Origin: a virus
Lineage: Duplodnaviria > Caudoviricetes
Direction: 5' to 3' (one strand)
Length of the DNA stretch: 63,265 bases
Virus record (IMG/VR): IMGVR_UViG_3300009414_000002
Coordinates: 1-63,265 of that record
The stretch's first letter is position 1, and each line of letters opens with the position of its first letter. Below, in pieces: positions 33,212 to 62,367 of the stretch. The notes under the pieces are model-generated. The model was not told the DNA's origin. It saw only the letters and a list, made by a program, of their open reading frames with translations, and made no database searches. The position numbers and the translations under genes were made by a program.

Positions 33212-34169
33212 TGTTCCTCTCTTGAAAGTGACGGACTGTCGCGTCGTTTTCTCCATCTTCCGAAACCGTTACGCGAACCCACGGAATTTCTGGAAATTCA
33301 GAGCAAATTGCAGATGCCAAGGCGTTCCCAATCTCTTCGCACGACGCAGTTTCAAAAATGTTGTTGAGCGTTTTGCACAAAAGATCGTCACAGCATGACT
33401 GGAGTATGTGGAATTCGATTTGACGCGATTTCAAAATCGGAACCGTCGCGGAGCATTTGAACAAATGCCGATGATTTTTCCTCAAATACATGACTTCATC
33501 TGGGGCATCCGGCCAATGATGGAAACCAACGGCTTGGAACCTGACTGTTATCGAAGTGTGTTCGTCGGTTTTTGAATATTCACAACCTTGGCTCAATGGG
33601 CATTCCAAGCAAGCTGGAGTTGTGTTGTGGCAAACCAGTTCGCCAATGTCTTTCAGCGCGATCATCAGGTCGTAGTTGCGATGCCTTGTCATCGTCAATG
33701 ACGCCAAGAATCGCTTTGGATCGCCTTTCAGCCTACTCGCAACCCTGATTATGTGAGCATCCGTTGGTGGTGGAGTGTCGGTTTCACCACGAGCCATTTT
33801 GATCAGAGGTATTGCAGACCCCCAGTCAAATGAAGACTTGGATGCTGGAACGCCTATTTCCCCATCCAGCCACATCGCGACGGAAGTGACGATTGATCTC
33901 TGATACCACGGAAGTGGGAGGTTGCTCAGGCGGTTTTTCTGGGCTTCAGGTGTCAGCTTAAGCCAGTCGCCAAACGTTGAAATTCCGGTGAAAATGCCCT
34001 TGAACTCTGATTCAAGTACCGGTGTGTCCGTGTACTCAAGAAGAGCCAAAGACATGAAAAACACATCCGGTGGACAGTCCGGTGTTCGCCAAGGCAAAGC
34101 TCTTCTTTCGCAATTATGGCTGTAGTAAATGGCAAGTGTGTCTTGTAGGTATTTCAGGTCGCCAGACAA
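33183..34169 (-). CDS. Fusion: MutY/EndoIII-like HhH-GPD [4Fe-4S] domain plus QueD-like T-fold (DpdL-like)
   Basis: RALPWR, DAHIIRV, C-X6-C-X2-C-X5-C; C-terminal GFHHWPDAP, LRKNHRHLF, SCE, VSEDGEN. Confidence 0.75.
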   Translation of the reverse strand: MSGDLKYLQDTLAIYYSHNCERRALPWRTPDCPPDVFFMSLALLEYTDTPVLESEFKGIFTGISTFGDWLKLTPEAQKNRLSNLPLPWYQRSIVTSVAMWLDGEIGVPASKSSFDWGSAIPLIKMARGETDTPPPTDAHIIRVASRLKGDPKRFLASLTMTRHRNYDLMIALKDIGELVCHNTTPACLECPLSQGCEYSKTDEHTSITVRFQAVGFHHWPDAPDEVMYLRKNHRHLFKCSATVPILKSRQIEFHILQSCCDDLLCKTLNNIFETASCEEIGNALASAICSEFPEIPWVRVTVSEDGENDATVRHFQERNNVHVQAQIT

Positions 34170-34193
34170 ATGTTCCTCCTTGCTGTCAGATCG

Positions 34194-34736
34194 TCAAAAA
34201 GCGATGTGCAGGAATTCTGACCTGCAAGCCGCATCTTCTTTCATGCACCCCCTGAGTGCCGATGTTGTTGTTTGTGCGCCGGTTCTCTGGACGCCTCGCA
34301 TGGACATACACAAGTGTTCTGCTTGCAACACAACTCCAGCACCGAGTGGTGCCAGTTGGTTGTAAAGGTAGTCCGCGATTTGATTTGTGAGATATTCTTG
34401 CGTTTGCGGCCTTAGTGAAAACTTGTCCACTACTCGAGCTAGCTTGCTCAACCCGCATATCTTTCCACTTGGATCTGGAATGTACGCGACCACCGCAGTG
34501 CCGAAAAATGGAAGCAAATGATGCTCACAGAACGAATAGAACATTATCTCCGAACAAACGATCATTTCATCTGTGCCGTTTGCAGGAAACGTCGTCAAAT
34601 TAAAGTCTGATCTCGCCTCGAACTCCTTCCACATTCGAGCGACTCGATCTGGCGTTTCAAGAGTGCCTTCAACCCCATTGTGTGGGATTTGAGACAACAT
34701 CGCTTCAACGGCTCCTTTTATGATCGATTCGTTCAT
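34194..34736 (-). CDS. folE: GTP cyclohydrolase I
   Basis: ETP.RVA, CEHHLLPFFG, GLSKLAR, QE.LT, HLCM.MRG. Confidence 0.95.
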   Translation of the reverse strand: MNESIIKGAVEAMLSQIPHNGVEGTLETPDRVARMWKEFEARSDFNLTTFPANGTDEMIVCSEIMFYSFCEHHLLPFFGTAVVAYIPDPSGKICGLSKLARVVDKFSLRPQTQEYLTNQIADYLYNQLAPLGAGVVLQAEHLCMSMRGVQRTGAQTTTSALRGCMKEDAACRSEFLHIAF

Positions 34737-35413
34737 GGCAACCCAATGAACTTGTGTGTTTGGACTGAAAGTCTCCAATCGGTGTTGTTTTTCAAAAACT
34801 CAATGCACTGTGCGGTGTTGTCGCTTGAAATGCGTGGATCAACATCCCACTGGGGTTGGATGTACTTGTGTGAAATGTGCTCGGGTCCGCAAAGCGTTTC
34901 AACTTGCGTGTTCAATTCCAATGGGTCGAACTCTGGGCAAACGACTTTCAACTCATCATAACGCTGAGGAACAAACGGCATTGGGGGCTTTGGGCTCAAT
35001 GTCACCCAAGCCACTTCCTTTGGAAGCTCATTCGAACCATTTGTTTCGACGTGGACTCGAATTGCGTGCCTAGTCATTTGTTTCACAAGTTCCGTGTCGA
35101 TTTGAAGCGACGGTTCCCCACCAGTCATTACCGCAGTGGCTTCGCTGTTGTTGGGCCACAGCTTCCTTATCGTGTGAGCCAGTTCCGATGCCGTGTATTT
35201 GCCTCCAAGTGGACCATCTGTACCCACAAAATCCGTGTCACACCACAACGCACAACGGCCCTTCTCTACGTTCCGCTTGCGGTCCTCTTCGCGCCCCGTC
35301 CATACGTTACACCCCGCATACCGGACGAACACCACGGGACAGCCCGAATAAGCACCCTCGCCTTGAATTGAAAAGTACACTTCTTTAATCGCGTACGTTT
35401 TGTTCTCGTCCAT
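34733..35413 (-). CDS. queE: 7-carboxy-7-deazaguanine synthase (radical SAM)
   Basis: SIQGEG, VFVR..GCN, CDTDF, TGGEP, ETNG, SPK, WRLSVQTHK. Confidence 0.93.
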   Translation of the reverse strand: MDENKTYAIKEVYFSIQGEGAYSGCPVVFVRYAGCNVWTGREEDRKRNVEKGRCALWCDTDFVGTDGPLGGKYTASELAHTIRKLWPNNSEATAVMTGGEPSLQIDTELVKQMTRHAIRVHVETNGSNELPKEVAWVTLSPKPPMPFVPQRYDELKVVCPEFDPLELNTQVETLCGPEHISHKYIQPQWDVDPRISSDNTAQCIEFLKNNTDWRLSVQTHKFIGLP

Positions 35414-35446
35414 GTTAGCACTCCAATTTGAATCCGGTCCAGCGTA

Positions 35447-35521
35447 TTACCAGCAATTTCGAATCCAAAGGAAAGTCGACGCTCCGCACAAGAATCCGAC
35501 AATGAATGTGCTGATGTCCAT
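35447..35521 (-). CDS. Possible 24-aa hydrophobic peptide MDISTFIVGFLCGASTFLWIRNCW
   Basis: Fills the queD-queE gap; AAGGA upstream. Confidence 0.3.
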   Translation of the reverse strand: MDISTFIVGFLCGASTFLWIRNCW

Positions 35522-35561
35522 GTTCTAAATAATCCTTTTTTATGCCCAGACCCCGCAAAAG

Positions 35562-36005
35562 TTAAGACACAGGGTAGTCAGCCCAGCAGTTTGGGGTTTC
35601 ATACAGACGGACTGACTTGATCTCAACGCCGGTATTGTCCTTGGAGAACAGATCCGAAGCCGTTGAAAACAGAAGTTTTACCATATTTTCGGCTGTTGGA
35701 TTGCATTCCATGATGAATACTTTCATGCTTCGCTCAAGAAAAGCGTCTGCCAAATCGTCGTCTTCATGCAAGATCATCCCGTGGTCCAAATTGAGGTCTA
35801 TCCACGAGCCAAACAGTTCTTTTATGACGGAGAAGTCTACTACCCTACCAATGCCGTCAAGAGAGCCGTCTTCCGCTACGCAGCAAGTCAACTCAACCAC
35901 ATACCGGTGTCCGTGGTAATGTTCACACTTGCCTCCGTGATTTATCAGCCTATGTCCTGCGTCAAACTCGAGCTTCCTTGTGCAGGTCGGTTCTTGTGAA
36001 CTCAA
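35562..36005 (-). CDS. queD: 6-carboxy-5,6,7,8-tetrahydropterin synthase
   Basis: FDAGHR, CEHYHGHRY, VDF, LDH, PTAEN, ETP. Confidence 0.93.
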   Translation of the reverse strand: MSSQEPTCTRKLEFDAGHRLINHGGKCEHYHGHRYVVELTCCVAEDGSLDGIGRVVDFSVIKELFGSWIDLNLDHGMILHEDDDLADAFLERSMKVFIMECNPTAENMVKLLFSTASDLFSKDNTGVEIKSVRLYETPNCWADYPVS

Positions 36006-36604
36006 TGTAGATCCTCATCATTCGTGGGCCTTTCCCGGTCATTGGAAAACGCAATCGCTTCTTCAAGACTCAAATTGACATCGTGCATGGTCACGGTCGA
36101 ATATTCTTCATCTGAGTTGTCACTCGACAACACTTTGTACACCGCCTTCATCACTGCATCTTTGTTTTCTGGTTCCACGGCAACCATCGCGGCAAGAATT
36201 TGGTCTGCGTGAATTCTTAAGATCATGGGAACGAGCAGTGTTTCTCCCGGCATTTGAGATTTTTCGTAAGGGTCTGAGTACATTGTCATTTCAAGTTCTC
36301 CATCCCCAACACGAACGGTTTTTTTGTTCATGTCTTTGTACCATTCGGAAATAACCTCTTGAAAGGTTTCGTTGGGTGGATTCTTCCTTGACCAAGGGAC
36401 GAGTTCCGTGAGCGTTAAGCCGAGCATATAAAACATGGTTCCAATGACAGGATGGTCGCGAAATACTTCAGGCACATCCTTGTTGGTGCCGTTTAAGTGC
36501 TCGAACAATTCAGCGGCCGCGATTAGCGCTCCCGGGATGTCACGGTCGCACACTTTGTCGCATATCTCTTGCAACGCGGCGTTTGTGTCTTTTTGTTCTT
36601 TCAT
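36002..36604 (-). CDS. Hypothetical protein
   Basis: GGAGG RBS; coupled to neighbours. Confidence 0.6.
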   Translation of the reverse strand: MKEQKDTNAALQEICDKVCDRDIPGALIAAAELFEHLNGTNKDVPEVFRDHPVIGTMFYMLGLTLTELVPWSRKNPPNETFQEVISEWYKDMNKKTVRVGDGELEMTMYSDPYEKSQMPGETLLVPMILRIHADQILAAMVAVEPENKDAVMKAVYKVLSSDNSDEEYSTVTMHDVNLSLEEAIAFSNDRERPTNDEDLH

Positions 36605-37104
36605 TTTGCAACGCCCTCCATGCGCCGACCATATTCGCCAAGCAAAAGAGCCGATGCGCGGTTATGGTCTTTTTTTCTGCTGAAATCCATTTCCGGCCAG
36701 AGGCGCGATGCCGCCAATATCGCCCTCCCTTTCGTGTCCGTCCCTTCTACGTCAGCGAGCATCGACTTCATCCACCTCTGAGGCGTAACAAGCTCATACG
36801 GTGTTTTGAGTGTGGCGATACACCCTTCCAGCATTCCAAATGAGCGCCCGAAAGAAAAAACGCTTACAACTCCTTGGCCGGGACGCGAATTTACCTTCTC
36901 GAGTATGACTTTTGACCTTTTGGAATACGGCTTGATTAAGTTCACTAGATGCGACAAGTGAAGCTCCTTTCTTTTCCCCACTTTTATCGTTGGGAAATCG
37001 GAACTGAGTATCGAACGACCGGCGTGGTCTACTATGCCGATGGCACCGCTCAACCCGGGATCTAGCCCGATATAGAAGTCATATTTTTTATCTTCTCCAA
37101 CCAT
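36601..37104 (-). CDS. RuvC-like Holliday junction resolvase
   Basis: YIGLDPGLSGAIG, LEKV, FSFG..FG, P..W, DHNRA.ALL. Confidence 0.85.
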   Translation of the reverse strand: MVGEDKKYDFYIGLDPGLSGAIGIVDHAGRSILSSDFPTIKVGKRKELHLSHLVNLIKPYSKRSKVILEKVNSRPGQGVVSVFSFGRSFGMLEGCIATLKTPYELVTPQRWMKSMLADVEGTDTKGRAILAASRLWPEMDFSRKKDHNRASALLLGEYGRRMEGVAK

Positions 37105-37312
37105 TGGAACTCCTCTATGTGAATGAGGCATCTGTATCGGGCCATGCCTCCCTGCGCCCGCCAGTGTTGCTTTGTGATCAAGGGAGATACGCGGCAAGCA
37201 CTGACTTCCCGAGATTCACGCCTTACTCGGGCTGGCGACCGTGGAAAGCGAAACAACACACGTTGCGAGTTATTACTCAACGTAATCGCTGTCCACGGAT
37301 TTAGAGTCACTG

Positions 37313-47991: not shown

Positions 47992-49566
47992 CTATTCACC
48001 CAAAACCAGATCCAGTGCGCCTGAATCGTTGTTCAAGGTTCCTTTCCAAGTTTTGTCTGCCAACTTATCGATGGTTTGTTCCCACCCGCTCGACGCACCA
48101 ATCAAAACCCCGTAGCACGTCACTTCATGCTGTTCCCTAAATTGACGCCAAAGTGTTTCGCAATCTTCGTCAATGTCACACTCTCCATCCGTTATGAATA
48201 TGATATCTGCTCGTTTGAATTCGTTTGGTCGGTCGGTTGTTTCTTGTTCACGGTCGCTGTATTGCCCTCGCGACAAAATTTCCATCGAACTGATCAATGG
48301 TCTTTCCCACGAAGTTCCCCCGCCTGAAAACGTGCGGACAATATCCAGCATCGAATTCATTTTGGCTTGTTGGCTGTCGCCCTTCACGACGAAGCGTGTC
48401 AGTTGAACTTCTCCATCGAACAACACGGCTGCAAACGGACGGTTCTGTGAAACCGCTTTGTGCATGAGCGCAAACGCCATTGCTTTCGACCAAATTTCCC
48501 TGTGACCATCCATCGAACCAGATACGTCCACGCACGCAATGATTGGTCCCTTCCCAAGCGTTTCTCTGTCTTTCAGCGACCATTGCAAAAGCTGTTTTTC
48601 AACGTACTTCGACATGAACAACGCTTTGAGTTCTTTTTTGTTCGCCCATGCGTACTGGTGCGGCAAAAGCCGACGGAACTCGGCACCAAGTTCCACGTCA
48701 TCGATTTCCGCTGTACTTGCGCGGGCCTTGGTAGCGCGTTTGGTTCCATCGATTCGAATGAAACGACCTGCAAGATTCATTATTTCAGCAAACTTGTGAT
48801 CGTCCATGACGCGCTTTGCGAGGGCGATTCTTTCTTGAGCAGATACTTTTGTGATTTGACCGGATGAGTCTCCCCATCCCATCACTTCGGCCAACTTCTG
48901 CTCTTCGTCGATTTTCTCTTCTGCATCATTCGCAGCAGAACGAATCGCTGTTCTCAAAGCCGATTCATCTATTGAAGCATTGAATTCGTCCAATTCCTTA
49001 TCTATCCGGTCGGCTTTGTGCATGGCGCACCGGACTCCAGTTTCCAATTGTTCAAGTTCACCCGGGTCGTTCCCGCTGTATTCGGACAGCGCATCTTTTG
49101 CGTCGTCAATTTCGTCAGCAGCTTTGCCGAGATCCATGTTGTCGTTTGGTGCTGGTATGTTGCGTAGCACTTGTTCCGCAATGACCGACGCCGCCATTCC
49201 CGCGAAGACCTTATCCCCGCGTGTCCGGCTTATCAGCGGCTCCCATTGTCGGACCGATTGCGCCGCATCATGCGCCACCCGTGCCCAATGCGATTGCTTT
49301 GGAAGCTCCGGGTTTTCCAATGGGTTGTCAGATGAATACAACCGTTGAAACAACTCACGGTAAAACGCCTCCAACCCCGGGAGTCGCTCTTGTTCTTCCT
49401 CATACGGAACCGGCATTGCAAGACCCGACTTGATGAGGTTTTTGTACTGATAGCGGGACCATTTCAACGCCCGATGAACTTGGTCTTCCGTGTCAGCAAG
49501 CAACCATTCGTCATCGGTATTGGACGGCCTGAGATTGATTGTTCTTTCGTTTGTTGATTCACTCAT
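47992..49566 (-). CDS. VWA domain protein (ViaA-like)
   Basis: GPII.CVDVSGSM MIDAS, GGT, ADIIFITDG. Confidence 0.88.
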   Translation of the reverse strand: MSESTNERTINLRPSNTDDEWLLADTEDQVHRALKWSRYQYKNLIKSGLAMPVPYEEEQERLPGLEAFYRELFQRLYSSDNPLENPELPKQSHWARVAHDAAQSVRQWEPLISRTRGDKVFAGMAASVIAEQVLRNIPAPNDNMDLGKAADEIDDAKDALSEYSGNDPGELEQLETGVRCAMHKADRIDKELDEFNASIDESALRTAIRSAANDAEEKIDEEQKLAEVMGWGDSSGQITKVSAQERIALAKRVMDDHKFAEIMNLAGRFIRIDGTKRATKARASTAEIDDVELGAEFRRLLPHQYAWANKKELKALFMSKYVEKQLLQWSLKDRETLGKGPIIACVDVSGSMDGHREIWSKAMAFALMHKAVSQNRPFAAVLFDGEVQLTRFVVKGDSQQAKMNSMLDIVRTFSGGGTSWERPLISSMEILSRGQYSDREQETTDRPNEFKRADIIFITDGECDIDEDCETLWRQFREQHEVTCYGVLIGASSGWEQTIDKLADKTWKGTLNNDSGALDLVLGE

Positions 49567-49575
49567 TGAACCACC

Positions 49576-50775
49576 TCAATCCAATCCGCGACCACGAAAA
49601 ATCTCGTGGTTCAGCCGTTCTTGCAAATCAGTCCACATTTGGCGAATGCCGCCAATCAGCGTGTCAACCGAACCCGATACCCGGTCTTGCCGTGACGAAA
49701 TCACCGATGCTTGCTTTCCGATGTTCTCTAGTTGCTCCAATATGGTGGACCCACCATCCAAAAATTCAGCGCGACTCTCTTTCGGGTTTGGAAGCTGTGA
49801 AACCAGTTCCTTCGCGGCGTCATACAACTCCTGCACTTCGTTCAAGACCGGATTGGCGATTTTGCTGACTACACGGACGATGGTTGGCTTGTCTTCTGGT
49901 TTTCCCCAAAGGAGGTCTGCCAAAATTTCGAACGATTCAACTTCCAGTTTGCCGTACCCGGACAAGACCGAATGCGCCGCCAGAATTGGTACGGTTTGTC
50001 TCCAACGCCTATCGCTGTACTCCAAACCTTCGTTCTTCAGCGCCTCGCTAATTTCAATCAGCGCGTCTTCAAATTCATCGTTGTCGTTTTCAAGGAACGC
50101 GGCGACTTTCGACCGAAGCTCTTCGAGTGATTTCGATGAAAGCGTGCATTGTGGATTGGGTGCTGGTCCGAACACGATTCGTTTTCTGTCAGCCGGATCT
50201 CCAGCCCACTTCACGTTGAGTCGAACCATGAACCTGTCGTAAATGGCATTCAACGTGTCGTCTTCTGGGAGTTCGTTCGATGCAGTGATCATCGTTTCCA
50301 GCGGAACGTCCTCGACAACCAACCCGTTGTGAAACTTGCGTTCGTTGACCACACATAGGAGCGTATTCAACAATGCGTGATTGCACTTCCACACTTCATC
50401 CAAAAGAACGACCTCGCACGTTGGAAGGTACCCTTCCGTTTTGCGATAAAACTCGTCGTTCATCAGCTTGGTGACGCTGTACGGACCAAGCACTTCATCT
50501 GGCAGCGTTGTTTTGGATACGAGGTACTCGAAATACGTTTTCCCGAGTGCCTTCGCGATTGCCCTCGCAAGCATTGACTTTGCAGTGCCCGGTGGGCCGA
50601 GGATGAAAACGTGCTCTTTTGCCAGAAATGCCGCCATTATTGCGACAATTTCACTGCGCCGGTCCACGAAGTGCTTGTCGAACTCATTTATGAATTCGAT
50701 CACTTCAACTTGGCAATCTTCTGGTTGTTCGCTTTGCTCGGTTCCGTCGATACTGACAATTGTTGCGTCCGTCAT
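49576..50775 (-). CDS. MoxR-family AAA+ ATPase (RavA-like)
   Basis: GPPGTAKS, LDEVWK, LN.LL, ASNELP, YDRF, SDRRW. Confidence 0.9.
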   Translation of the reverse strand: MTDATIVSIDGTEQSEQPEDCQVEVIEFINEFDKHFVDRRSEIVAIMAAFLAKEHVFILGPPGTAKSMLARAIAKALGKTYFEYLVSKTTLPDEVLGPYSVTKLMNDEFYRKTEGYLPTCEVVLLDEVWKCNHALLNTLLCVVNERKFHNGLVVEDVPLETMITASNELPEDDTLNAIYDRFMVRLNVKWAGDPADRKRIVFGPAPNPQCTLSSKSLEELRSKVAAFLENDNDEFEDALIEISEALKNEGLEYSDRRWRQTVPILAAHSVLSGYGKLEVESFEILADLLWGKPEDKPTIVRVVSKIANPVLNEVQELYDAAKELVSQLPNPKESRAEFLDGGSTILEQLENIGKQASVISSRQDRVSGSVDTLIGGIRQMWTDLQERLNHEIFRGRGLD

Positions 50776-50810
50776 GGACTCCTCCTTGTTGCACTTCAAA
50801 TTCCGATGGG

Positions 50811-51116
50811 TCAATCAACTCGCCAGCCCTCATCGAAAAGTTTGTCTGCAGTAACCGGTCTCGACAACGCTGAAACCGCTTCATGCGAGTCCAGCGTTCC
50901 GTAAATGTTTGCTCCTTCCAAAATGCCTAGCTTGAAGCCGCCACCTTGCGTTTTCATGAAATTGGAAACCAAAACAGCGGTGACTGGGAGTTCCAGACCA
51001 CCTTCCGAAACTTTCTTGAGTGGGCAACACGCGATCCCGTTGAATTTGAACTTCCAACGCAATGGATTTTTCATCCACCCAACGTGCCTGTCTTTGTTCG
51101 AAGACAAAATGAACAT
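50811..51116 (-). CDS. Hypothetical protein
   Basis: GGAGG RBS before ATG 51116. Confidence 0.5.
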   Translation of the reverse strand: MFILSSNKDRHVGWMKNPLRWKFKFNGIACCPLKKVSEGGLELPVTAVLVSNFMKTQGGGFKLGILEGANIYGTLDSHEAVSALSRPVTADKLFDEGWRVD

Positions 51117-52234: not shown

Positions 52235-53353
52235 GAAACACCTCCTTGTTTTCACTGCCCTTGTTCTTTGTCGCCATGCCGGGATTGCCGACACCCCGAT
52301 ATGTTCGCACGGGTGGATAGATAATGCAACCATAAAACAACGTTTATGTGAAAAAAAACAAAATCGTCGTGACGCAAAGCAATTGCATGAGGGTCGCGTT
52401 TTTGTCCATTGGTGCGACCGGGTGGGCGCGTTGCACCCGACGCCGTTGCTTGGACAGTGCTTTAAAGACCGGTTTTTCCTCATGGAATCGCGGTTGTAGA
52501 CTGGGTGGGGTAGGGTTTTGAAAACGCCGGGTTTCTGGTAAAAAGACTCCAGAGGGTCTCCAGCAAGGAATTAGCTGTTTTGTGCCGTTCATTCCCAACC
52601 AAATTCCTACTATTCCTTCTCCATGAGATGGGTTTGTACGACGTTCGATGTGCTTCGGTCGCAGATAATGGATGTTGCTGTGTGCGGCACTCAGGTCATT
52701 TTGGCAATCATGTTAGCGGGGATGAGGAAACTTTTTGGATCTGAAAGCATGAATTCTTTATTCAGCAATGGTTGTTAAAGACTCACACGTAGTGGTCTGA
52801 TCCGTTTAAGCCTCAACGAAGCTTTAACTACGGAGCTACGCTTTGAGGTCTTTTCCAAAGTTTCGAATTCAAGTCCAGTTTCGCGAGTCAGCCTACTCAA
52901 TTGCTAAACTTAACGGCTGCTGAAAGAAATGAATGAAATCTGGGCCGCCGTCCTCTTATTTGTGGCTCGACCTCTTTCTTCGCTGAGCGCTGTTTGGTGA
53001 AGCTTGCTCGAGTGTAATTCGAAAAGGCTGGTTGGAGTCCCAATCTTGCAACACCTGCTGTAAATCAATTCTGTACTGTACTGTTCTGTTCCGCCCGCGG
53101 TCGCTATCGGTGGGGTATCTATACCGTATCGAGGATGAATCTTGGCACGCAGGCGAGATTGGCACGGAGGCGAGACAATTTTACAAATCGGAGGTATAAC
53201 TGGACGACATCATTCGCTGCAGTTTGGCGGTTGGTGGGTCAACGGCGTCTGCGGTACCCCATTCCCCGAAAGCCGTGGTCGTCGTTGATTTTTTGGATCT
53301 TGACTTGGCTGAGTCCAACATGGTACGCTACGAAACGTAGCGTACGAAATTGG

Positions 53354-53596
53354 CTATCGACGGGCGTTTCTTTCGCTTGTCCAATTCGAATGCGCTCTAT
53401 CAATCACAAATTGAACGCTGACATTTTCCGAGTCGCACAAATGGAAAAGGTCGGTCACCAAATCGATGATCAAGTCCACCGCGGTTGGGGATTTCTGGGG
53501 CCTCGTTTGCGATTTGCTGTATGCCCTTAATATCTTCGATGCCGTTCGGGACACGGCTTTCACCGCACCAGTCAACTCCATGTTGGGTCGCTCCAT
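53354..53596 (-). CDS. Small hypothetical protein (DL.TDL.HL motif)
   Basis: GGAGG RBS. Confidence 0.55.
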   Translation of the reverse strand: MERPNMELTGAVKAVSRTASKILRAYSKSQTRPQKSPTAVDLIIDLVTDLFHLCDSENVSVQFVIDRAHSNWTSERNARR

Positions 53597-53748
53597 TTTC
53601 CATTCACCTCCGGTTGTGCCCGCGAAGGGCGTTCATTTACATGAGCAGCGTTTCAAATTGACCGTTGCTCGCATTGTTCGTTGTTTTGCGTCGAATGGTA
53701 TTCGGTTGAACGCGAAATCGCGAGCAACGCAAAATGCTTGTGCCGGTT

Positions 53749-54162
53749 TTAGTCATCATCGGTTGTTTGTTGTTGCGCTTCCGTTGCGATGGCTGCGTAC
53801 ACGTTGATGAGGTCTTTCGTTGCGAATGCGAAAGCGAATATCGCGGCCCAGAATGATTGCAACAAAATGCCGCAACCAACTGCGAACGCGAGTGGAATTA
53901 ACAACGGTGTCAACAGCGGCCAATTGACGAAATACCGCGGTGCTGTGACGTATTGCGTCTCCGTTGGTTCGTTGGACTCACCGGAAAAACATTCCCGAAG
54001 CAAACTGGTTGCCCGTTCATTGCCATCTGACGCCAACGCCCGAAGCACCATGAATTGGGCTTCTGTCGGGTATTTGCCCTCGGAAATTCTTCGTTCCGCA
54101 TAGGCAACGACACCGGACAACTGCTTCGGCACTCGTTGCGAATGTTTCTTTCTTTTACCCAT
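53749..54162 (-). CDS. Membrane protein (2 TM)
   Basis: Hydrophobic C-terminal helices; AGGTGG RBS. Confidence 0.5.
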   Translation of the reverse strand: MGKRKKHSQRVPKQLSGVVAYAERRISEGKYPTEAQFMVLRALASDGNERATSLLRECFSGESNEPTETQYVTAPRYFVNWPLLTPLLIPLAFAVGCGILLQSFWAAIFAFAFATKDLINVYAAIATEAQQQTTDDD

Positions 54163-54397
54163 TGTAAACCACCTTTGGCGTGCTCCGCATTTGTCGGCAC
54201 GTTGCCCGTCCATTGTAAAAAACGGACAAACGCCGTGCTCGGCAAATGCGTTGCAGCCATTCCGTATCAATCCCCCGTTTTTCGGTCCAAATCGCCGCGT
54301 GGAGTGTTGTCCACGGTGACGAGCTTGGACACCCAGAATTTATCGCAAACGGAACACGAGCACTTGTACACATGGCGCTCGCTAACGTTACGCGGAC

Positions 54398-54634
54398 TCA
54401 AAACAATCGGACGATGAATGCACTGCACAATATGTCTCCCTCATGGATGCCCGATGGCAGCCAATGCAATGGAATGTCGACTTGCCGCTCCCCGTCCAAT
54501 ACAACCGCCCAGTCGCCCTCGATCCGGTCAACGTGGTTGTGCTGATGGGCGGGAACATCACTATGATGCCCCGGTGGGACGTAGTGCGGTATTGTGTTTC
54601 CCAAAAGCGCCGCCAACAAAATAAGCGTGTTCAT
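54398..54634 (-). CDS. Secreted DUF3006-like protein
   Basis: Signal-like N-terminus; VDRIEGDWAVV...IP...LP....EGDIL. Confidence 0.6.
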   Translation of the reverse strand: MNTLILLAALLGNTIPHYVPPGHHSDVPAHQHNHVDRIEGDWAVVLDGERQVDIPLHWLPSGIHEGDILCSAFIVRLF

Positions 54635-54801
54635 GCCGTCACCTCTTGGAACTGACGGTTGAAACGCTCCTTCAATTGCTGAACACTCGGCTCGAGTTCC
54701 GCTTCCGTTTTGGATGCTTCACGGATCTCTCGTGCCTCTTTGGTTTCGATTGGCTTGCCATCGCGCTTGATGACCACGCCTCGTCGTCGGATAACTGTCA
54801 T
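54631..54801 (-). CDS. Small hypothetical protein
   Basis: AGGAGG RBS. Confidence 0.5.
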   Translation of the reverse strand: MTVIRRRGVVIKRDGKPIETKEAREIREASKTEAELEPSVQQLKERFNRQFQEVTA

Positions 54802-54892
54802 TGCAAAAACCTCCTGCCGGTTCCCAAAAACCGGCTCAATTTGTCGAACCCGACCCCCTTGTGGGGGCCGACGCATTGGGCCTAATCGACAA

Positions 54893-55660
54893 TCACCGCG
54901 TAGCGTAATTGCAATCCGCGCATTGCATACGCTCCTCTTGACTTGCCGCGTGGGTATCAGCGGGACTTCCGCATGAACACAACGCAACCGGCTCGATACC
55001 CGCACACTTGTCGCACGCAAGCTCTTCGGGGGGAACGTCACCGCATTCGTCTGGCGTCATTTCCCGCTTGCATTCGGTGCAGCGGTACATTTGACGTTTT
55101 ACTTCCAAAACCCGTTGTCCCAAATCCCCGTCGTCCCGCAACGCGGAAGCACCGTCAAACCCATATTTGCTCGCATGGCCCGCTGTGGCAATTTCCGTGA
55201 CCAAGTTCTGCAAATAATTGAGATTGTCAATTTTCCGTGTTTTCCCGCTCGGACGAACGGGGCCACGAGTCATCGCAAATGCGAAAATCGATTCCGCTTC
55301 ATCGTCGTCGCGGGGCGAAATTGCTTGTTGGATCAAAGAAATTCTTTCCAAATCCGGTTCCGTGCGGGGCTTCACGCCGGTAAGGTGGCTGTACGGTGAC
55401 GTGACGTGCCGAACTGTAATTTTGGCAAACCATCCCATCTTGATTGGCGTGCCGTCACCGTAGGTTTTGTGTGCGATTCGTTTGAAGGTAATGTCATCAG
55501 CCGGCCAAACACATTCGCGGTCAAAGCACTGCTCGAACACGTTGTCGGGTGTGCGCTCGAAACCGTACCAATGATCGCGATTATCGCGATTTCTCCGATG
55601 GTGTGCAAACAGCGCGTACGTTTTTGCGCTGATTGTAAATTCCATTTCAATCGTCTTCAC
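54893..55660 (-). CDS. Hypothetical protein with C-terminal Cys-rich zinc fingers
   Basis: AGGAGGT RBS before GTG; CTEC, CDKC, CSCG, CADC. Confidence 0.6.
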   Translation of the reverse strand: MKTIEMEFTISAKTYALFAHHRRNRDNRDHWYGFERTPDNVFEQCFDRECVWPADDITFKRIAHKTYGDGTPIKMGWFAKITVRHVTSPYSHLTGVKPRTEPDLERISLIQQAISPRDDDEAESIFAFAMTRGPVRPSGKTRKIDNLNYLQNLVTEIATAGHASKYGFDGASALRDDGDLGQRVLEVKRQMYRCTECKREMTPDECGDVPPEELACDKCAGIEPVALCSCGSPADTHAASQEERMQCADCNYATR

Positions 55661-55682
55661 GGGACACCTCCTGTTGTCGTTG

Positions 55683-56471
55683 TTAAAATTCGTCCTTCCG
55701 GTTTGTTTGCCAAAAATCATCTCGAACGCGAAACCCGTGCAAAGATGCTGCGGGCGTGTTGCGCTCTTCCGAATCACGAAACGAATATTGATCTTGCGGA
55801 ATACCCCATGAAGGGCTTCTCAATTCATGGAACATGGCGCGCTCTTCCGGTGTCAGATAACCGCAAAAAGGACTCTTGTACCGGAGCGGCTCTGGCGATT
55901 CCGCGTCCACACGATTCTCCCACCGCGAAAAAATGAATTCTCTCAAATCGGGGTTTGCGGCTTTGTTGGCCCGGTCGATGATTTTTTTCATCGCGGGGTC
56001 GGTGGTTGTCTTTAGCGGGGGTGTGTTCGGGGTGAGCGCTGCTTGCAACGTGTACATCATCCAATCTTGGATGTCCGTTATCGCGTCAGCCCATCCGTTC
56101 GGGGATGGATACACGGCTATATGCCGCGCAAATTCGCCACCCTGTTGCGTCACGTACCATTTGGTGGACTTCAAATACAGCATATCCCGGGGTTTGGGCT
56201 CGTCGAATCCCCACACCACGAATTTGCTGATACCGCCGTCCAAACTGAAGTCCGGACCAAACGACCACACACGGAAGCACAACCGATTGGTGTGAACGAG
56301 CCGCTCGGTGCCGTCCACATCGACCGGCTCGATTGCTTCGACCCACGTTCCCAATTCAGTGTTGTAATGATTGATGTCCCAATGGTCTTCTGAAACAACG
56401 GTCCCCGAAGGGGCGTTGCGTCGGAACCGCGAGCACGGAACCGGTAATCGCGAATAAGCTTGCGTTTTCAT
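55683..56471 (-). CDS. Hypothetical protein, paralogue of 56498..57079
   Basis: GGAG RBS; shared motifs with the upstream gene. Confidence 0.6.
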   Translation of the reverse strand: MKTQAYSRLPVPCSRFRRNAPSGTVVSEDHWDINHYNTELGTWVEAIEPVDVDGTERLVHTNRLCFRVWSFGPDFSLDGGISKFVVWGFDEPKPRDMLYLKSTKWYVTQQGGEFARHIAVYPSPNGWADAITDIQDWMMYTLQAALTPNTPPLKTTTDPAMKKIIDRANKAANPDLREFIFSRWENRVDAESPEPLRYKSPFCGYLTPEERAMFHELRSPSWGIPQDQYSFRDSEERNTPAASLHGFRVRDDFWQTNRKDEF

Positions 56472-56497
56472 TGCTGACTCCATTTTGTCGAATCGTT

Positions 56498-57079
56498 TCA
56501 CTTGGACCATTGTGTGTTTTTGAAAATTTCCGACATCGCACGCTCTATCGGTGCGTCGTCGCGGCCCTCTTCGCACAATTCCATCCCCCATCGCTCTTGG
56601 TAAAATCCAGCGTCCGCGAGCAGCTCTTCGGTCATGTTGCGTTCGACGTACTGTTTGAATGTCAGCGGCCCGTTGGCCGACCCGTAGATAGCCGCGTGCA
56701 ATGCCCCGTATATCCAATGCTGGATTTCCAACATCGCATCGTCCAAGTCCGAATAACGCGCCACATGGACCGGCTCACAACGACCCGACTCGTCGGGTGG
56801 GAAGTTCGTTTGATCGGTGACGACCCACGCTTCTCCATCGTTCCAAACGGCCATAACGCTGAACCCACCGTCCACGGAAGCACCCGGTGTGTTGGTGTCG
56901 GTAATGACTCGCGTCGAAAACCGAAACACTTCGATGGGCGCGTCATTGGTTTCTGGTCCACGGATTGTCTCTGTGGACCAATAGCCAATTTTTGTGCGCC
57001 ATATCTCTTGCGTCCGGTCGTGGTCTGCGAAATTTTCGGTGTTGGCGAACTTCGTGTGAAATTGCTGGATTTCGTACAT
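56498..57079 (-). CDS. Hypothetical protein, paralogue of 55683..56471
   Basis: AAGGAG RBS; shared motifs. Confidence 0.65.
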   Translation of the reverse strand: MYEIQQFHTKFANTENFADHDRTQEIWRTKIGYWSTETIRGPETNDAPIEVFRFSTRVITDTNTPGASVDGGFSVMAVWNDGEAWVVTDQTNFPPDESGRCEPVHVARYSDLDDAMLEIQHWIYGALHAAIYGSANGPLTFKQYVERNMTEELLADAGFYQERWGMELCEEGRDDAPIERAMSEIFKNTQWSK

Positions 57080-57318
57080 TGTGAAACTCCTTTGGATGCG
57101 GCCCGATTCAAAAACTGGGGAACCAACGTGGTGTGCCCCATGTCAACAATAATACCATATCCACGCAGTACTATCCACATAAATGTGAACGGGTGGTAGA
57201 TATATGGAACGGGCAATCTGTTCGATTATGAAAACCCATTCCCCCCCATGCTGTGGACCCACCGTGACTGGATACCCACTGATACTGGGCACCCTTGGTT
57301 TTTGAAGGGTCCGGGTTT

Positions 57319-57624
57319 TTACAAAACGGCTGCTGCTCGGACCGCGAGCGTGACCCACGACAACAACAACTCGTCACTGTTGATCCGCGCCGCATGAAGC
57401 GTTCGTGCCACGCTCTTCAAAATCGTGGCCTCCTTGGACCAACCACCACGGGCAAGCGCAATTTCGGATGCAAACGCTTGCTTCTCCGCGTTGAGATAAT
57501 CACCGGGACGACGCGCAAGCGCATAACGCAACGACATCGCATAGCCGTCATGGCCGACGTGAAACAACGCTTTGGTACCTGCCATCAAAGCAAGCTGGCA
57601 CAACTGGTCTCTGTTCTCTAACAT
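57319..57624 (-). CDS. Hypothetical protein
   Basis: AAGGAG RBS. Confidence 0.55.
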   Translation of the reverse strand: MLENRDQLCQLALMAGTKALFHVGHDGYAMSLRYALARRPGDYLNAEKQAFASEIALARGGWSKEATILKSVARTLHAARINSDELLLSWVTLAVRAAAVL

Positions 57625-57748
57625 CGCGAACTCCTTCTTGTTTTCTGGGGCAGGCTCGAAATCGAGCCTACTACCTACTTATATATATAAACACTGTCGC
57701 TGGACTGTGCTCACGCGAGATTTCCGTGAAGAAATCCGAAAATCGGAC

Positions 57749-57764
57749 TGGCACGACGCTTGCA
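57749..57764 (+). promoter_or_regulatory. Sigma54 (-24/-12) consensus site
   Basis: TGGCACG-ACGC-TTGCA. Confidence 0.55.
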
Positions 57765-57768
57765 TGTC

Positions 57769-57852
57769 GGACATCCGTTCACCGGTGATCAAATGTTCAC
57801 CACTGAACAACTGTTCACCGGTGATCAAATGTTCAACACTGAACAACCGTTC
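57769..57852. repeat. Tandem array with 18-bp period (36-bp unit x2), palindromic operator-like boxes
   Basis: GTTCACCGGTGATCAAATGTTCA(C/A)CACTGAACAAC repeated. Confidence 0.85.
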
Positions 57853-57986
57853 CGTGCTAATTATTTTCGCATTTGGCACAATTCTTGAACCATGCAATCC
57901 CCATGCCATAACTCGGTTTCGAAAAATGGCGTAAGTGTCCGATCCCGGCGATTGTCATCGAGACAATCGCACGGGGCCGGAACGTG

Positions 57987-58014
57987 AAAAACCCCGGGGT
58001 GTCAACCCCGGGGT
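57987..58014 (-). terminator. Intrinsic terminator
   Basis: ACCCCGGGG-TTGACA-CCCCGGGGT-TTTT on the minus strand. Confidence 0.55.
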
Positions 58015-58022
58015 GTTGTGGT

Positions 58023-58085
58023 TTACACAAATGCGGAAATTGCGATAACCGCACAAATCGAAATTGCGTATATGGTCAATGCCAT
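58023..58085 (-). CDS. Possible 20-aa hydrophobic peptide MALTIYAISICAVIAISAFV
   Basis: Short ORF directly before the terminator, within the AG-free island. Confidence 0.3.
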   Translation of the reverse strand: MALTIYAISICAVIAISAFV

Positions 58086-58210
58086 TGTTTTACCCGTTGT
58101 TCATTGTTGTTGCCGGTGCCGGATCCGGGCAACCCCGGAAACCCACGGTTATTACCCGTGGCGATTATCCCGGGGTGTGAACCCCGGGACAATCCGCACA
58201 ATCCCGACCG

Positions 58211-58726
58211 TTATGATTTCCGGCCCACGTTACGCGTGCATGAAACCATTCGAACCGTTGCGTGCAACGTGCCGGATTTTTTGTCGCCGGTACGTTCAAT
58301 CGCGTACGTGCGATCGGCCGTGTCGGACGCGGTCAAAACCCGTGCCGTGACGGCAAATTCGCGGATAACGGAATCGATCATGGATACGATTTTATCGATG
58401 TCCAAATCCCGCGCATCATATCCGGCGTTGGCCATTGCCGTCGTCGCATAATCCACGTTCACACCGTTTTCGCCGAACGCCAACGTTGTGATAATTTCCC
58501 GTTTGCCCGGTCGCGCCATTCGCGCCGCACGTTCCGCGGCACGTTGGGATTTCAATGCAATCCCGGTTGCGGCCGCCAATGGTGCCAACGCGGCACGTAA
58601 CACGTCCAATTGTTCGCCCGTCATATCACCGATCGTTGCGGGATCCAACGTGGACAAATCCACGGGGGCCGCGGTATCGGTCGTTTCAACAACGGGGGAA
58701 TTTTTGCGGTTTTTCGTTTTTGACAT
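58211..58726 (-). CDS. Hypothetical early protein encoded without AG/CT dinucleotides
   Basis: 171-aa ORF with natural composition; SD-like GGA elements only. Confidence 0.6.
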   Translation of the reverse strand: MSKTKNRKNSPVVETTDTAAPVDLSTLDPATIGDMTGEQLDVLRAALAPLAAATGIALKSQRAAERAARMARPGKREIITTLAFGENGVNVDYATTAMANAGYDARDLDIDKIVSMIDSVIREFAVTARVLTASDTADRTYAIERTGDKKSGTLHATVRMVSCTRNVGRKS

Positions 58727-59210
58727 TGTTCCAAATCCAATCCCGGTTGCCCGGGCGTTATCGTTTCATCCCGTCCCCGGGAATCATCGGGCCGTTTCAA
58801 TCCCGGGAAATTCCCGGGGTTGTGGAACCGGCGACGATTGGAACAACGGATATTGTTTCCAACCCCCGGATAACCGGTGATTGGGTCCATATTGTCAATG
58901 TCCGGCCGGGGGCCGTCCCCCGTCGATACGGGGGCATGTGTTAAACGTACACGATTGAACCATTATTCACAACGTTATTGTACCTCTATGATATCATTGG
59001 CGTTTTTTGGTGCCGTTGTTCGTGTTTGTGTTAACGGTCCGCAACCCCGCGTTATCGTTGGGGTTTTTTTTCGAAACCGCGGCCCGTAACGGGTCCGGGG
59101 ACACCGGCACCGGTCGCACCGTAACCACAAACGGCGCAACCCCGTGTTATCGTTGGGGAAAAAAAACGACATCGGCCGAAAATAAACCGAATACGGTACC
59201 GATACGGTAT

Positions 59211-59226
59211 TGGCACGGCATTTGCA
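59211..59226 (+). promoter_or_regulatory. Sigma54 (-24/-12) consensus site
   Basis: TGGCACG-GCAT-TTGCA. Confidence 0.55.
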
Positions 59227-59885
59227 CGTCGAACGGGGGCCGTTTCGCCCGTATATGGCATGCCAATTGAACAATGCAATCACTATGCCAACGCGTACGT
59301 TTATCTCTTGGTTTGGTTACGCCGGATCCTCTGATTGTACCAGTCGGTACGGTCGGCCGATCGGGTCGGGGTTCGCCGGTTGACGGTGCGAACGGGACTC
59401 GCGATCGGTCGGCCCCGGATGGTAACGCGGGATCGCACCACATCTCCCGCTCGGTTCGGTTGTGACCACCTCCCATCTGGGGCCGCTCGGTCTCCGGTCT
59501 CCGCGCTCTGTCTGGTCCGGTCTGTAATCGAAAATAATTCGGCGCACCATATCGGGGGGCCTGTGGTTTGATCGCGTGCCCCCGGTCTGGGGTGTTCACG
59601 CTCCCGCTCTGACCGTGCCCACGGCTCTGAATGCCGACCTCTGCCCGGGGCAATCCGCGGCCGGTCTGATCCCGCAACGGCCCGCATACACTGTGACCGG
59701 ATCGCATTTTTTGGCACGATTCTTTCCGGGTTACACCACACCGAAATTACTTTCGGAATTCGGTGAAACTTGCACGGAACTTGCATGATGCGCTCCTGGG
59801 TACCCACAAATTGCTAGCACGCTACAGCAGGGTGTAAGGCTACCAGTTCTTGACAGCAACATTACCGCGTTGCAGGATTGGCGTC

Positions 59886-60545
59886 ATGGCAGAAGAAACC
59901 CCACGGCACCGACGCGCATTCGACTTATACACGAAGCTCCGCAGCACCCGTAAGGTTGCGCCGGTAATCGGTGTGCATGAGGTTACCGTTCGTCAGTGGT
60001 CGCGTATGTTCGGTTGGCAAGAGCGTTTACGTGAGCACGACTCCCAGCTATCGAAATCTGCCGAAGCCGCCAAACGGCAAAAGGCCGAGGCCAAGGCACC
60101 CAAGACCGAAAGCACCCCTGCAATCGGCCCTTCCATTGGAGAATCCGCACCAGCACCCCCACCCCCCCAAAAGACTGGTGACGGGAACACCTCTCCAACA
60201 GACTTGCGGGTAGTAGAAGGATTGCTGGCTCGCTCAGTTCGCGATCTGGCTACCCGCAAGTCTCCTTCCATTAAGGCATCGTGTCCCAAGTGTTCAGCAC
60301 GTTTTGATGCAAAAGTCCCGTGGACGGTTGCCGATACGAAGACGAATGTTGGAGATGTGGAACGGTTGATGCGTTTGAAATGGCAATTGGAAGGGGGTGG
60401 ACCGGGTTCTGGGGGTGAAGATGCGGAATACCGGGACGAACGTTCGACAACCGAAGTTGCTCGGTCTCTAGTCAACCACCTCGAACGTCTTGGTGGGTTG
60501 AATCACATGATCGGACTGTACTTGGATGCCCAACCCGATGACTGA
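59886..60545 (+). CDS. Terminase small subunit (N-terminal HTH)
   Basis: AF.LY...RS..KVA...G.....V..WS...GW.ER; precedes terL. Confidence 0.75.
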   Translation: MAEETPRHRRAFDLYTKLRSTRKVAPVIGVHEVTVRQWSRMFGWQERLREHDSQLSKSAEAAKRQKAEAKAPKTESTPAIGPSIGESAPAPPPPQKTGDGNTSPTDLRVVEGLLARSVRDLATRKSPSIKASCPKCSARFDAKVPWTVADTKTNVGDVERLMRLKWQLEGGGPGSGGEDAEYRDERSTTEVARSLVNHLERLGGLNHMIGLYLDAQPDD

Positions 60546-62367
60546 CCCCACCCCACCATTGAGCCATGCCATTTTGGATGGTGATTGGGAACCATCTTGG
60601 GAGTCGTTGGGCCGAGCCGGCGTTTCATTGCGCGGTCGCATGAACCAACTCTCTGCTGAACTGTCGCGCAAATCCGGTCTTTCCGGTGATTTCTTCGTAT
60701 CTCTCCGTGGCATGGAACGCGACCTTGCGCGACTCGAACAAATCGCTTCGACCGAGGATTTTTTCCGTTGGTGCCGACGTTACATACCGCGACAAGTGAA
60801 CCGTCAACCGGCATCCATGCACCAGCGTGTCGTTGCTGACCTTTCGTGTTTTTTGAATCGGGAAGAACCCGATCCCGTACGTTTTCCCGGTGCTGATCGA
60901 TACGGTGCGTACGCTCTCCCCCGTGGTCACGGCAAAAGCACTTTGTTGGGGTTCGCATGGCCTTTGTACCTTTTATGCAACTGGAAGAAGTTCGATCTCT
61001 TCGGCTACGACGACGAAAACGGCGAGCGTCAGATCGACCAACGACCATTCATCGTGATCATCAGTGCCACCGAGTGGCAGGCTGCGGATCGTGTTCGCGC
61101 AATCCGCGTAGAACTTGAACGAAATCAAGAGCTTGCGGAAGACTACGGCGACCTAAGAACATATGGTCGCGGGATCAAATGGTCTGACCATGATCTTATC
61201 ACAGCCGACGGGTCACGAATAGTGTGCGCGGGCATGGATACGGCTTTCCGTGGCCTTGTTGAGGGCGAATCCCGACCCAATGTGGTTTTGCTGGATGACA
61301 TCGACGACAAGAAGACAATCACCACCACGGAATTGAGAAACAAGGCAGCTAGAAAGATTTCTGAGGAAGTGATCGGACTCGGCATCGAGGGCGAGTTCAT
61401 GATGGTCGCATGGGGCACCATCCTCCACTACGATTCCGTCTTGGCCCGACTGCTTGATACGGCTGGTGAATTCCAAGGGTACGTGCGCCGGAAGTACAAG
61501 GCGTTGCCAGACGAAGACACACTCGACCAAAAAGCCGGTGAAGTTGCATTTCCAGCAAAGTGGCCCAAACATCTCCTTCTCAGAAGAAAAAAGAGCATCC
61601 CGCCACTCGCATGGTCCACCGAGTATCAAAATGAACCGATGGACGACAGCACCACCGTGTTCCCAATGCACTGGCTCCGTGCAGCAATGGGACGAGGTGC
61701 GGATAGGGAAACGCCAATCATGCCACTACTTCCCGTCGAAAAAGGCGGTGAGTTCATCGTCGTCGCCCAAGGATGGGACTTGGCATTCGTGGACAACAAG
61801 CGCCATGCAGAAAAGAAACGTACGTCTTTCAATGCTGGAATCACTGGAGCCGTTGACATCCACGGGAACCTTCATTTATGCCATCTGATTCGCAACCGTG
61901 GGCTCAACCCTCTCGAAATGGATGAGATGATCTCAGCAAATGCCGCTTTGCTTGAGCCCGATGTGGTGGTAATTGAAGCCAACCATGCGGGGCACGTTCA
62001 TATTCACACGATCCGAGAAGAAACGGGTATCCCGGTTGTCGGAAGAACAACTGGCGTGGAAGTGAACGATCTCTACAAAGGGGTCCCGGCACTACAAAGA
62101 CCATTTGCCAATGGGCAGGTCATCATGTGGTGCGGAGATGAATACGGACGACGAATGATGGAAGCAATCGTAGAAGAATTGCACCGCTTCCCACAAGGGC
62201 GTAGAGGGGATACCGTCATGGCCTTGTGGCATTTGTGGTCCGTGCTGCGCCCAGCAATGATGAAGGCAGAGCGTTTGAGGAAAGAGGGAGTTGCCCACAA
62301 ATTCCGAGAAACATTCAAACTTGGCGATTTCAAAGTCGATGTGAGGACTGGCGATGATGCTGAATAA
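60526..62367 (+). CDS. Terminase large subunit
   Basis: PRGHGKST Walker A, VVLLDDID Walker B, GT.LH.D, EYQNEP, GWDLA, IEAN, FP.G...D.V.A. Confidence 0.93.
   Translation: MPNPMTDPTPPLSHAILDGDWEPSWESLGRAGVSLRGRMNQLSAELSRKSGLSGDFFVSLRGMERDLARLEQIASTEDFFRWCRRYIPRQVNRQPASMHQRVVADLSCFLNREEPDPVRFPGADRYGAYALPRGHGKSTLLGFAWPLYLLCNWKKFDLFGYDDENGERQIDQRPFIVIISATEWQAADRVRAIRVELERNQELAEDYGDLRTYGRGIKWSDHDLITADGSRIVCAGMDTAFRGLVEGESRPNVVLLDDIDDKKTITTTELRNKAARKISEEVIGLGIEGEFMMVAWGTILHYDSVLARLLDTAGEFQGYVRRKYKALPDEDTLDQKAGEVAFPAKWPKHLLLRRKKSIPPLAWSTEYQNEPMDDSTTVFPMHWLRAAMGRGADRETPIMPLLPVEKGGEFIVVAQGWDLAFVDNKRHAEKKRTSFNAGITGAVDIHGNLHLCHLIRNRGLNPLEMDEMISANAALLEPDVVVIEANHAGHVHIHTIREETGIPVVGRTTGVEVNDLYKGVPALQRPFANGQVIMWCGDEYGRRMMEAIVEELHRFPQGRRGDTVMALWHLWSVLRPAMMKAERLRKEGVAHKFRETFKLGDFKVDVRTGDDAE

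Follow-up and report, generated by a model that had tools for sequence, protein, structure and literature searches.

In T5-like phages, host defences succeed only when their sites lie in the first-step-transfer (FST) DNA, so that such sites are counter-selected there, and strand-biased sites evade Type III restriction, according to the accessible part of the source (PMC10644984). Counter-selection of this kind in the FST DNA of T5 is, as far as the same part of that paper (PMC10644984) goes, the closest published concept to the locus described here. Excerpts of the work on 7-deazaguanine in DNA describe phage DpdA motifs that in the shortest case are no longer than GA (iggy, GA; CAjan, GA and GGC; PMC10484667, PMC7544227), a bacterial DpdA that modifies the G within CAG/CTG (PMC10164549), and the Dag1 and Dag2 glycosylases, which degrade 7-deazaguanine-modified phage DNA (bioRxiv 10.1101/2025.10.29.685425). 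A motif-free or dinucleotide-free island was not described in the portions of the literature retrieved with a limited set of terms.

The window, as the whole of the DNA analysed here is called, spans 63,265 bp and is the complete record of a tailed phage from marine metagenomes. It has a 123-bp direct repeat at its ends that may be an assembly overlap. No close relatives of the phage, cultured or uncultured, were found; there was no DNA match to its genome in INPHARED, all TerL relatives in IMG/VR and the JGI metagenomes were at ≤29% identity, and those in INPHARED were below 28%, the nearest of them (≤25%) including Mu-like phages. The plus strand carries a class-I methyltransferase gene in addition to the structural and packaging genes, and the minus-strand gene arm runs from about 58726 down to 30607 and encodes a primase-helicase, a Sak4-like protein, a PD-(D/E)XK exonuclease, a MoxR/VWA pair and a resolvase. 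In this replication arm the MoxR-type AAA+ ATPase (PF20030 bpMoxR, 5e-51) adjoins the VWA/ViaA-like protein at 47992-50814. The features on which the analysis centres are as follows.

296-30610, plus strand: head and tail genes
31263-36005, minus strand: 7-deazaguanine gene cluster (DpdA-like, FolE, QueE, QueD)
31263-32084, minus strand: DpdA-like gene, matching PHROG 887 'queuine tRNA-ribosyltransferase' (E = 2.7e-17, residues 120-272)
34194-34778, minus strand: FolE (PF01227, 8e-57)
34733-35413, minus strand: QueE (NCBIfam TIGR04508, 2.7e-60)
35562-36005, minus strand: QueD (PTPS, 1e-28)
53354-57909, minus strand: genes assigned to the early arm, with about 2.5-fold coding-strand CT depletion
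57913-59283, minus strand: AG-free zone (CT-free on the plus strand), in CT-free runs of 1072 and 297 bp, the exception being AGAG at 58987-58984
57962-59283, both strands: AG/CT-free island of 1322 bp, with 0 AG and 2 CT on the plus strand
57962-59816, plus strand: AG-free zone, in runs of 1381 and 474 bp, with one exception at 59342-59343
58211-58726, minus strand: ORF171, 171 aa, ATG start, pI 9.1
58984-58987: CTCT (AGAG on the minus strand), the sole AG/CT inside the island, with CT at 58984 and 58986
about 59887-60545, plus strand: terS, upstream of terL
60526-62367, plus strand: terL

AG is essentially absent from both strands of the island, which is made up of two AG/CT-free runs at 57962-58984 (1023 bp) and 58987-59283 (297 bp). 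The density of AG plus CT elsewhere in the genome is 0.0996 per base (about 10 per 100 bp), the next longest AG/CT-free gap in the 63 kb is 59 bp, and the probability of two or fewer AG/CT in 1322 bp at the genome density is 6e-57. The plus-strand zone (1.85 kb; the probability of at most one AG in 1855 bp is 1e-29) reaches 530 bp to the right of the island, as far as the terS ribosome-binding region, and the minus-strand zone sits between the two copies of a 41-nt repeat. No outlier was observed among the other nine strand-symmetric dinucleotide classes or the other 14 single-strand dinucleotides, and the loss of AG/CT is compensated across many dinucleotides (AA, AT, AC, CG and GG), with the G+C of the island lying above that of the genome. 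AG, and equally CT, is counter-selected, and absolutely so within the island; since the compensation is spread and the coding signature of ORF171 is kept, the island reflects selection and not a single mutational path. That a dinucleotide and its complement have both been lost speaks for recognition at the level of double-stranded DNA, and the absence of both AG and CT fits an asymmetric dinucleotide that is recognised there in either orientation.

Two general explanations were rejected. Avoidance of restriction sites in general can be excluded: at 27 six-base palindromes per kb, the island is richer in them than the rest of the genome (7 per kb). A general avoidance of AG in intergenic or promoter DNA is also rejected, as 15 other intergenic stretches (≥70 bp, the two that overlap the island being left out) hold 46-138 AG+CT per kb. 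The island is also unusually rich in CCGG (28 occurrences) and CCCGGG (eight occurrences).

ORF171 has been examined before, in an earlier note which proposed that avoidance of AG had shaped its protein sequence, and the observations behind that proposal were reproduced. None of its 18 Lys, Glu and Gln residues is followed by Ala, Asp, Glu, Gly or Val, an outcome reached in only 7 of 200,000 shuffles of the residues, though the protein is otherwise rich in these five residues (71 of 171, 41.5%) and 856 of 2594 Lys/Glu/Gln (33%) in the other genes of the phage are followed by one of them. The 25 nt upstream of the start end in ...gggattggatttggaacaATG and hold no AG-containing Shine-Dalgarno (SD) sequence, an SD-like motif with AG being present at 36 of the 67 crudely called gene starts of the phage. 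If ORF171 is a gene, the conclusion that selection against AG overrides dipeptide choice and the SD is sound, and it extends to codon choice; the constraint, however, is that of the DNA island and not of the protein, because AG-free DNA forces the dipeptide pattern in any reading frame, and because the AG-free zone (1.3 kb, or 1.85 kb on the plus strand) covers non-coding DNA, about 800 bp of the island sitting outside ORF171. The ORF itself has no AG and no CT; Lys, Glu and Gln are encoded only by AAA, GAA and CAA, Leu by TTR, Arg by CGN and Ser by TCA or TCC, and Lys/Glu/Gln make up 10.5% of its residues compared with 15.0% elsewhere in the phage, with Asp preferred to Glu and Arg to Lys.

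The length of ORF171 is no evidence of coding, because random AG/CT-free sequence often yields ORFs as long: in Markov sequences of the island's composition the longest ORF reached at least 171 aa in 42% (order 1) and 56% (order 2) of cases, and in 26% when only ATG starts were allowed. Of the 11 ORFs of at least 70 aa in the island, ORF171 has a codon score of +0.089 bits per codon and the ten others range from -0.19 to -0.40, and all of 2852 null ORFs (≥120 aa; mean -0.219, sd 0.076, maximum 0.028) fall below it. Under an unrestricted codon model it scores +0.187, compared with 0.143±0.079 for phage genes, and the frequency of G at its first codon position is 0.41. Codon composition, the one line of support, makes it likely that ORF171 is a real gene. 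The profile and structure searches to which the earlier note had looked gave no homologue, family match or usable fold. Only ORF171 itself was matched in a word-index search and by phmmer in 1.84 billion representatives, there was no match in PHROGs, Pfam or NCBIfam, no usable match in the ESM Atlas and no relative in IMG/VR, and the AlphaFold2 single-sequence model is of low confidence (pLDDT 45.1). The protein has 24 Lys+Arg and 21 Asp+Glu, and thus lacks the strong acidity of DNA-mimic anti-restriction proteins of the Ocr/ArdA type. Among the ORFs of the leftward gene arm, ORF171 is the one nearest to a candidate promoter, and the suggestions of the earlier note that it is the first gene to be expressed, with an anti-defence or takeover role, are hypotheses.

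It is highly improbable that the island has no function and arose through an error of assembly or sequencing or as the trace of context-specific hypermutation. Such an origin would suit the raised G+C, and ORFs would survive the hypermutation, as no stop codon can arise from an A-to-G or T-to-C change. However, the identical ORF171 protein occurs on 24 contigs and three 99%-identical variants occur on 17 more, from several sources, with the stretch present in 15 runs; the compensating dinucleotides are many and not a single product; and the sharp borders at regulatory landmarks, the coding signature of ORF171 and the natural variants, 10 of 10 of which obey the rule, also speak against it. These variants were taken from contigs of four marine metagenome runs (Illumina-type), listed as separate 2017 studies. 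A total of 23 variant places were found in 53000-61000, with ten in the island, eight in 59284-59815, two in 53000-57961 and three in 59816-61000. None of the ten island variants creates an AG or CT (chance 0.018), several variants being on single contigs at a depth of 4-6 and some possibly errors, and the AG-free state appears to be still under selection. The ORF171 variants comprise three amino-acid changes (E144D, S134T and A19V) and a synonymous one, a 3:1 ratio that is uninformative as to purifying selection on the protein. The zone 59284-59815 is a variant hot spot (eight in 532 bp). The metagenome contigs fragment around 56500-59450 in all four runs, with flanking contigs of 10-14 kb in one run, which fits strain-level diversity concentrated around the island.

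In its sequence elements the island matches one leftward transcription unit, in which a promoter-like motif is followed by about 540 nt of leader, then by ORF171 and last by a terminator-like hairpin. The elements of this putative unit and its flanks are the following.

57868-57908: left copy of the 41-nt repeat, containing a leftward sigma-54-like motif (57894-57908)
57986-58014, minus strand: terminator-like hairpin, a 10-bp G+C stem followed by U5 (-21.2 kcal/mol)
58158-58199, minus strand: strong hairpin directly 3' of the ORF171 stop (-31.5 kcal/mol, z -3.7)
59250-59290: right copy of the 41-nt repeat, 73% identical to the left copy, the two copies flanking the island
59276-59290, minus strand: sigma-54-like motif TGGCAT-N5-TTGC directed leftward into the island, a candidate promoter by consensus match only
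59284-59815: strand-asymmetric non-coding zone, with 1 AG against about 24 expected on the plus strand, which is CT-rich

The sigma-54 promoter consensus is TGGCAC-N5-TTGC, and promoters of this type are normally activator-dependent, which makes a sigma-54-type promoter an odd fit for a first-expressed gene. No other promoter-like motif than the sigma-54-like one was found where the island unit starts, a sigma-70-like site being absent there from the minus strand, and the AG in the spacer of the motif at 59276-59290 forms the right border of the minus-strand AG-free zone. At the other end, the terminator-like hairpin would close the ORF171 unit about 25 nt inside the left island border. None of 200 shuffles folds as well as the hairpin at 58158-58199. 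With one mismatch or fewer, the consensus has 10 matches in the genome, seven of which lie within 57749-59784 on both strands (two perfect ones on the plus strand at 57749 and 59211, and five with one mismatch), the genome-wide count in itself not being significant, as 11 of 100 shuffles reach 10. These matches may be sigma-54-type promoters or operator sites; TGGCATGCCA is a palindrome. A leader hairpin element of 24 nt is present in two copies, 96% identical, at 59040-59072 and 59135-59168, the first followed by T8 and the second by A8, tails that are able to pair. Downstream of the second leftward promoter-like motif, 57765-57845 holds an 18-bp periodic repeat with TGTTCA/TGAACA half-sites and overlapping palindromes, which by its sequence looks like an operator or iteron array. 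A search for Rfam families and tRNAs in the island region gave nothing meaningful.

In the zone 59284-59815 the ORFs were rejected as genes, with codon scores of about -0.16 and one population variant that gives a stop codon. CCGGTCT(G/C) occurs five times on its plus strand (59489-59669) upstream of terS. The zone is possibly a packaging or regulatory region, with CCGGTCT(G/C) as a candidate packaging or terS-binding site.

Avoidance of AG was also detected outside the island, in a graded and strand-specific form. Each coding-strand CT corresponds to an AG on the template, and observed/expected values were computed given each protein, with early, middle and late classes inferred from gene position and function and the gene lists being crude longest-ORF calls from which overlapping or doubtful ORFs were left out. 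The observed/expected value of coding-strand CT was 0.97 in late genes (n = 30), 0.78 in middle genes (n = 27), 0.40 in early genes (n = 8) and 0 in ORF171, and that of coding-strand AG was 0.99, 1.02, 0.85 and 0, respectively. The depletion of CT differs between early and middle genes (Mann-Whitney p = 6e-7) and between middle and late genes (p = 1.3e-4), and it is present in all three codon phases, with TC, CC and TT unchanged. This graded avoidance on the template strand fits lesions or obstacles whose effect is limited to transcription of the incoming modified genome.

Since AG lies in every SD core, the early mRNAs are depleted in CU and the island borders match transcription-unit landmarks, a constraint on RNA must also be weighed, in which AG (and CU) would have to be kept out of the transcripts, for example as protection from an endoribonuclease or to avoid SD-like or anti-SD-like sequences. 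Convergent promoters would make both strands count, and the sigma-54-like cluster does contain motifs in both directions. Motif-free mRNAs are known to resist mRNA interferases, as in the case of ACA-less mRNAs and MazF. We consider this explanation improbable, however, because the loss of exact complements would need two unrelated RNA rules or antisense transcription, and we know of no RNase with AG or CU specificity.

An equally improbable explanation is that the island is a CRISPR-proof zone, where AG (NAG-type PAMs) has been removed from both strands so that the first-expressed unit offers no protospacer for either acquisition or targeting, and ORF171 might then be an anti-CRISPR. PAMs of 2-3 nt that are read in either orientation do predict that a motif will be lost along with its complement, ORF171 is a small ORFan that varies fast (four variants in 516 bp, three of them non-synonymous) at the head of the early arm, and T5 is CRISPR-sensitive only for targets in its first-transferred region, according to the accessible part of the source (PMC10644984). 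The explanation does not account for the strand-specific, class-graded depletion in early and middle genes or for the one-strand zone 59284-59815, and a downstream HTH gene of the 'aca' type was not detected among the neighbours with Pfam and PHROG. To our knowledge, moreover, the known PAM sets leave part of NAG uncovered, and variants without AG are common in them.

In this phage, the obvious candidate for an agent that discriminates at the scale of a dinucleotide is its 7-deazaguanine system. The DpdA-like assignment is a single PHROG match, with no match of the protein in Pfam, NCBIfam or PDB sequences and one distant homologue (29% identity) in 5.8 billion proteins. QueC was not detected among the scanned ORFs of the phage, and it could be supplied by the host, or the inserted base could be a pre-QueC product. 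The cluster region (31263-37197) also encodes a 391-aa protein with a weak glycosyltransferase-1 match (32081-33256) and a 328-aa protein with a MutY-like Fe-S cluster-loop segment (33183-34169); with QueC undetected and these two proteins present, the base that is inserted may be an unusual one or may carry additional modification. The Gs in AG context are 19.2% of all Gs in the phage, and the modification levels reported for phage 7-deazaguanines, in those parts of the publications that were available, are 16.5-32% of Gs. These genes lend circumstantial support to the suggestion in the earlier note that ORF171 might be concerned with modified DNA.

Our main reading, to which we give a probability of roughly 0.4, is that AG is the modified motif and that the first unit is kept free of it. 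We infer AG as the motif, and likewise the assignment of genes to temporal classes, the promoter, the kind of harm and what ORF171 does. The phage would make a 7-deazaguanine base and probably insert it into its own DNA through a DpdA-type transglycosylase, the DpdA-like enzyme targeting the G of 5'-AG-3' (19% of Gs), a scale like that of the GA motif of other phage DpdAs. The modified G would be kept out of DNA that has to be read out from the incoming, fully modified parental genome. Accordingly graded classes would result: the first leftward unit (from the motif near 59290 through the leader and ORF171 to the terminator near 57990) would have no AG on either strand, the next early genes would avoid AG on the template strand, the middle genes would do so less, and the late genes, presumably transcribed from newly replicated DNA, not at all. 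The harm avoided is probably a host defence directed at the modified base, for example by a glycosylase or modification-dependent nuclease, whose lesions would stall RNA polymerase only on the template strand; that the modified base itself hinders transcription is less likely. ORF171 would then be a protein needed whatever the defence does, possibly a defence inhibitor. The template-strand argument leaves the plus-strand AG-free zone 59284-59815, upstream of the candidate promoter, unexplained. The fuller version of the main reading, in which an AG-hypermodifying phage keeps one unit motif-free and so immune to modified-base defences, delivering a candidate inhibitor from it, with the gradient as a 'modification shadow' in codon usage, is somewhat doubtful. 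In that version the gradient would mean that modified G, or the excision of it, stops the incoming parental genome from being transcribed.

The comparison with other phages covered six genomes and seven partial loci. None of the six genomes, all of which carry genes of the deazaguanine pathway (CAjan, fecal phage MT835580, Alteromonas R7M, Vibrio VpKK5, Vibrio 2.117.O and Dinoroseobacter R26L), has a dinucleotide-free island, and modification alone therefore does not force one. In the CAjan genome (motif GA), GA/TC likewise showed no bias between gene classes.

The recognition may also be turned the other way, with a host- or phage-borne enzyme acting on unmodified 5'-AG-3', either a nickase or a nuclease that needs a site of 2-3 nt, or a toxin that modifies bases in single-stranded DNA (ssDNA). 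The first unit would then be immune as a countermeasure gene, and the early genes would avoid the site where a lesion stops transcription. This is unlikely in our judgement, though the avoidance is absolute, at the dinucleotide level and on both strands, and its template-strand bias is graded by gene class, all of which favours it. Very-short-site nickases of the R^AG type in chlorella viruses offer a precedent, and we know of no bacterial defence with AG specificity. T5 gives a further precedent, defences against it working only with sites in the first-transferred DNA, as far as the available part of PMC10644984 goes. DarT toxins modify bases in ssDNA, but in the accessible portion of the source DarT2 targets T and no consensus motif is reported for DarT1, which was accordingly rejected as the AG-specific agent (PMC11543638). 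In addition, the host would have to protect every AG of its own genome, and the 6154 AG/CT sites in the rest of the phage would need protection, which leads back to modification.

Should the main reading be true, the modification motif of a phage could be read from its sequence, even in uncultured phages, as the short word that is missing from the first unit and depleted on early template strands. DNA hypermodification would then be costly enough to reshape codon, dipeptide and ribosome-binding-site usage, and genes of the ORF171 type would be candidate inhibitors of modification-dependent defences such as 7-deazaguanine glycosylases. Even without the mechanism, an absolute and sharply bounded dinucleotide-free unit is a clean, testable anomaly.

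Among the known systems, the motif-specific phage DpdA systems have motifs of dinucleotide size, as AG would be, and the phage likewise has FolE, QueD, QueE and a TGT/DpdA-like protein; it differs from CAjan and iggy in that no QueC was detected and the DpdA-like protein is very divergent, and CAjan has no motif-free island. In the FST region of T5-like phages and the early region of T7, the first-acting DNA carries early counter-defence genes, as is proposed here. Compared with the T5 FST region, a whole dinucleotide and its complement are missing here and not sites of 4-8 bp, palindromic sites are abundant, and the avoidance is graded and strand-specific by gene class; there is no sequence relationship between the two. 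The genome-wide under-representation of restriction sites and PAMs in phages likewise removes short sequences recognised by the host, but that under-representation is statistical, whereas the island is an absolute and sharply bounded absence in one transcription unit.
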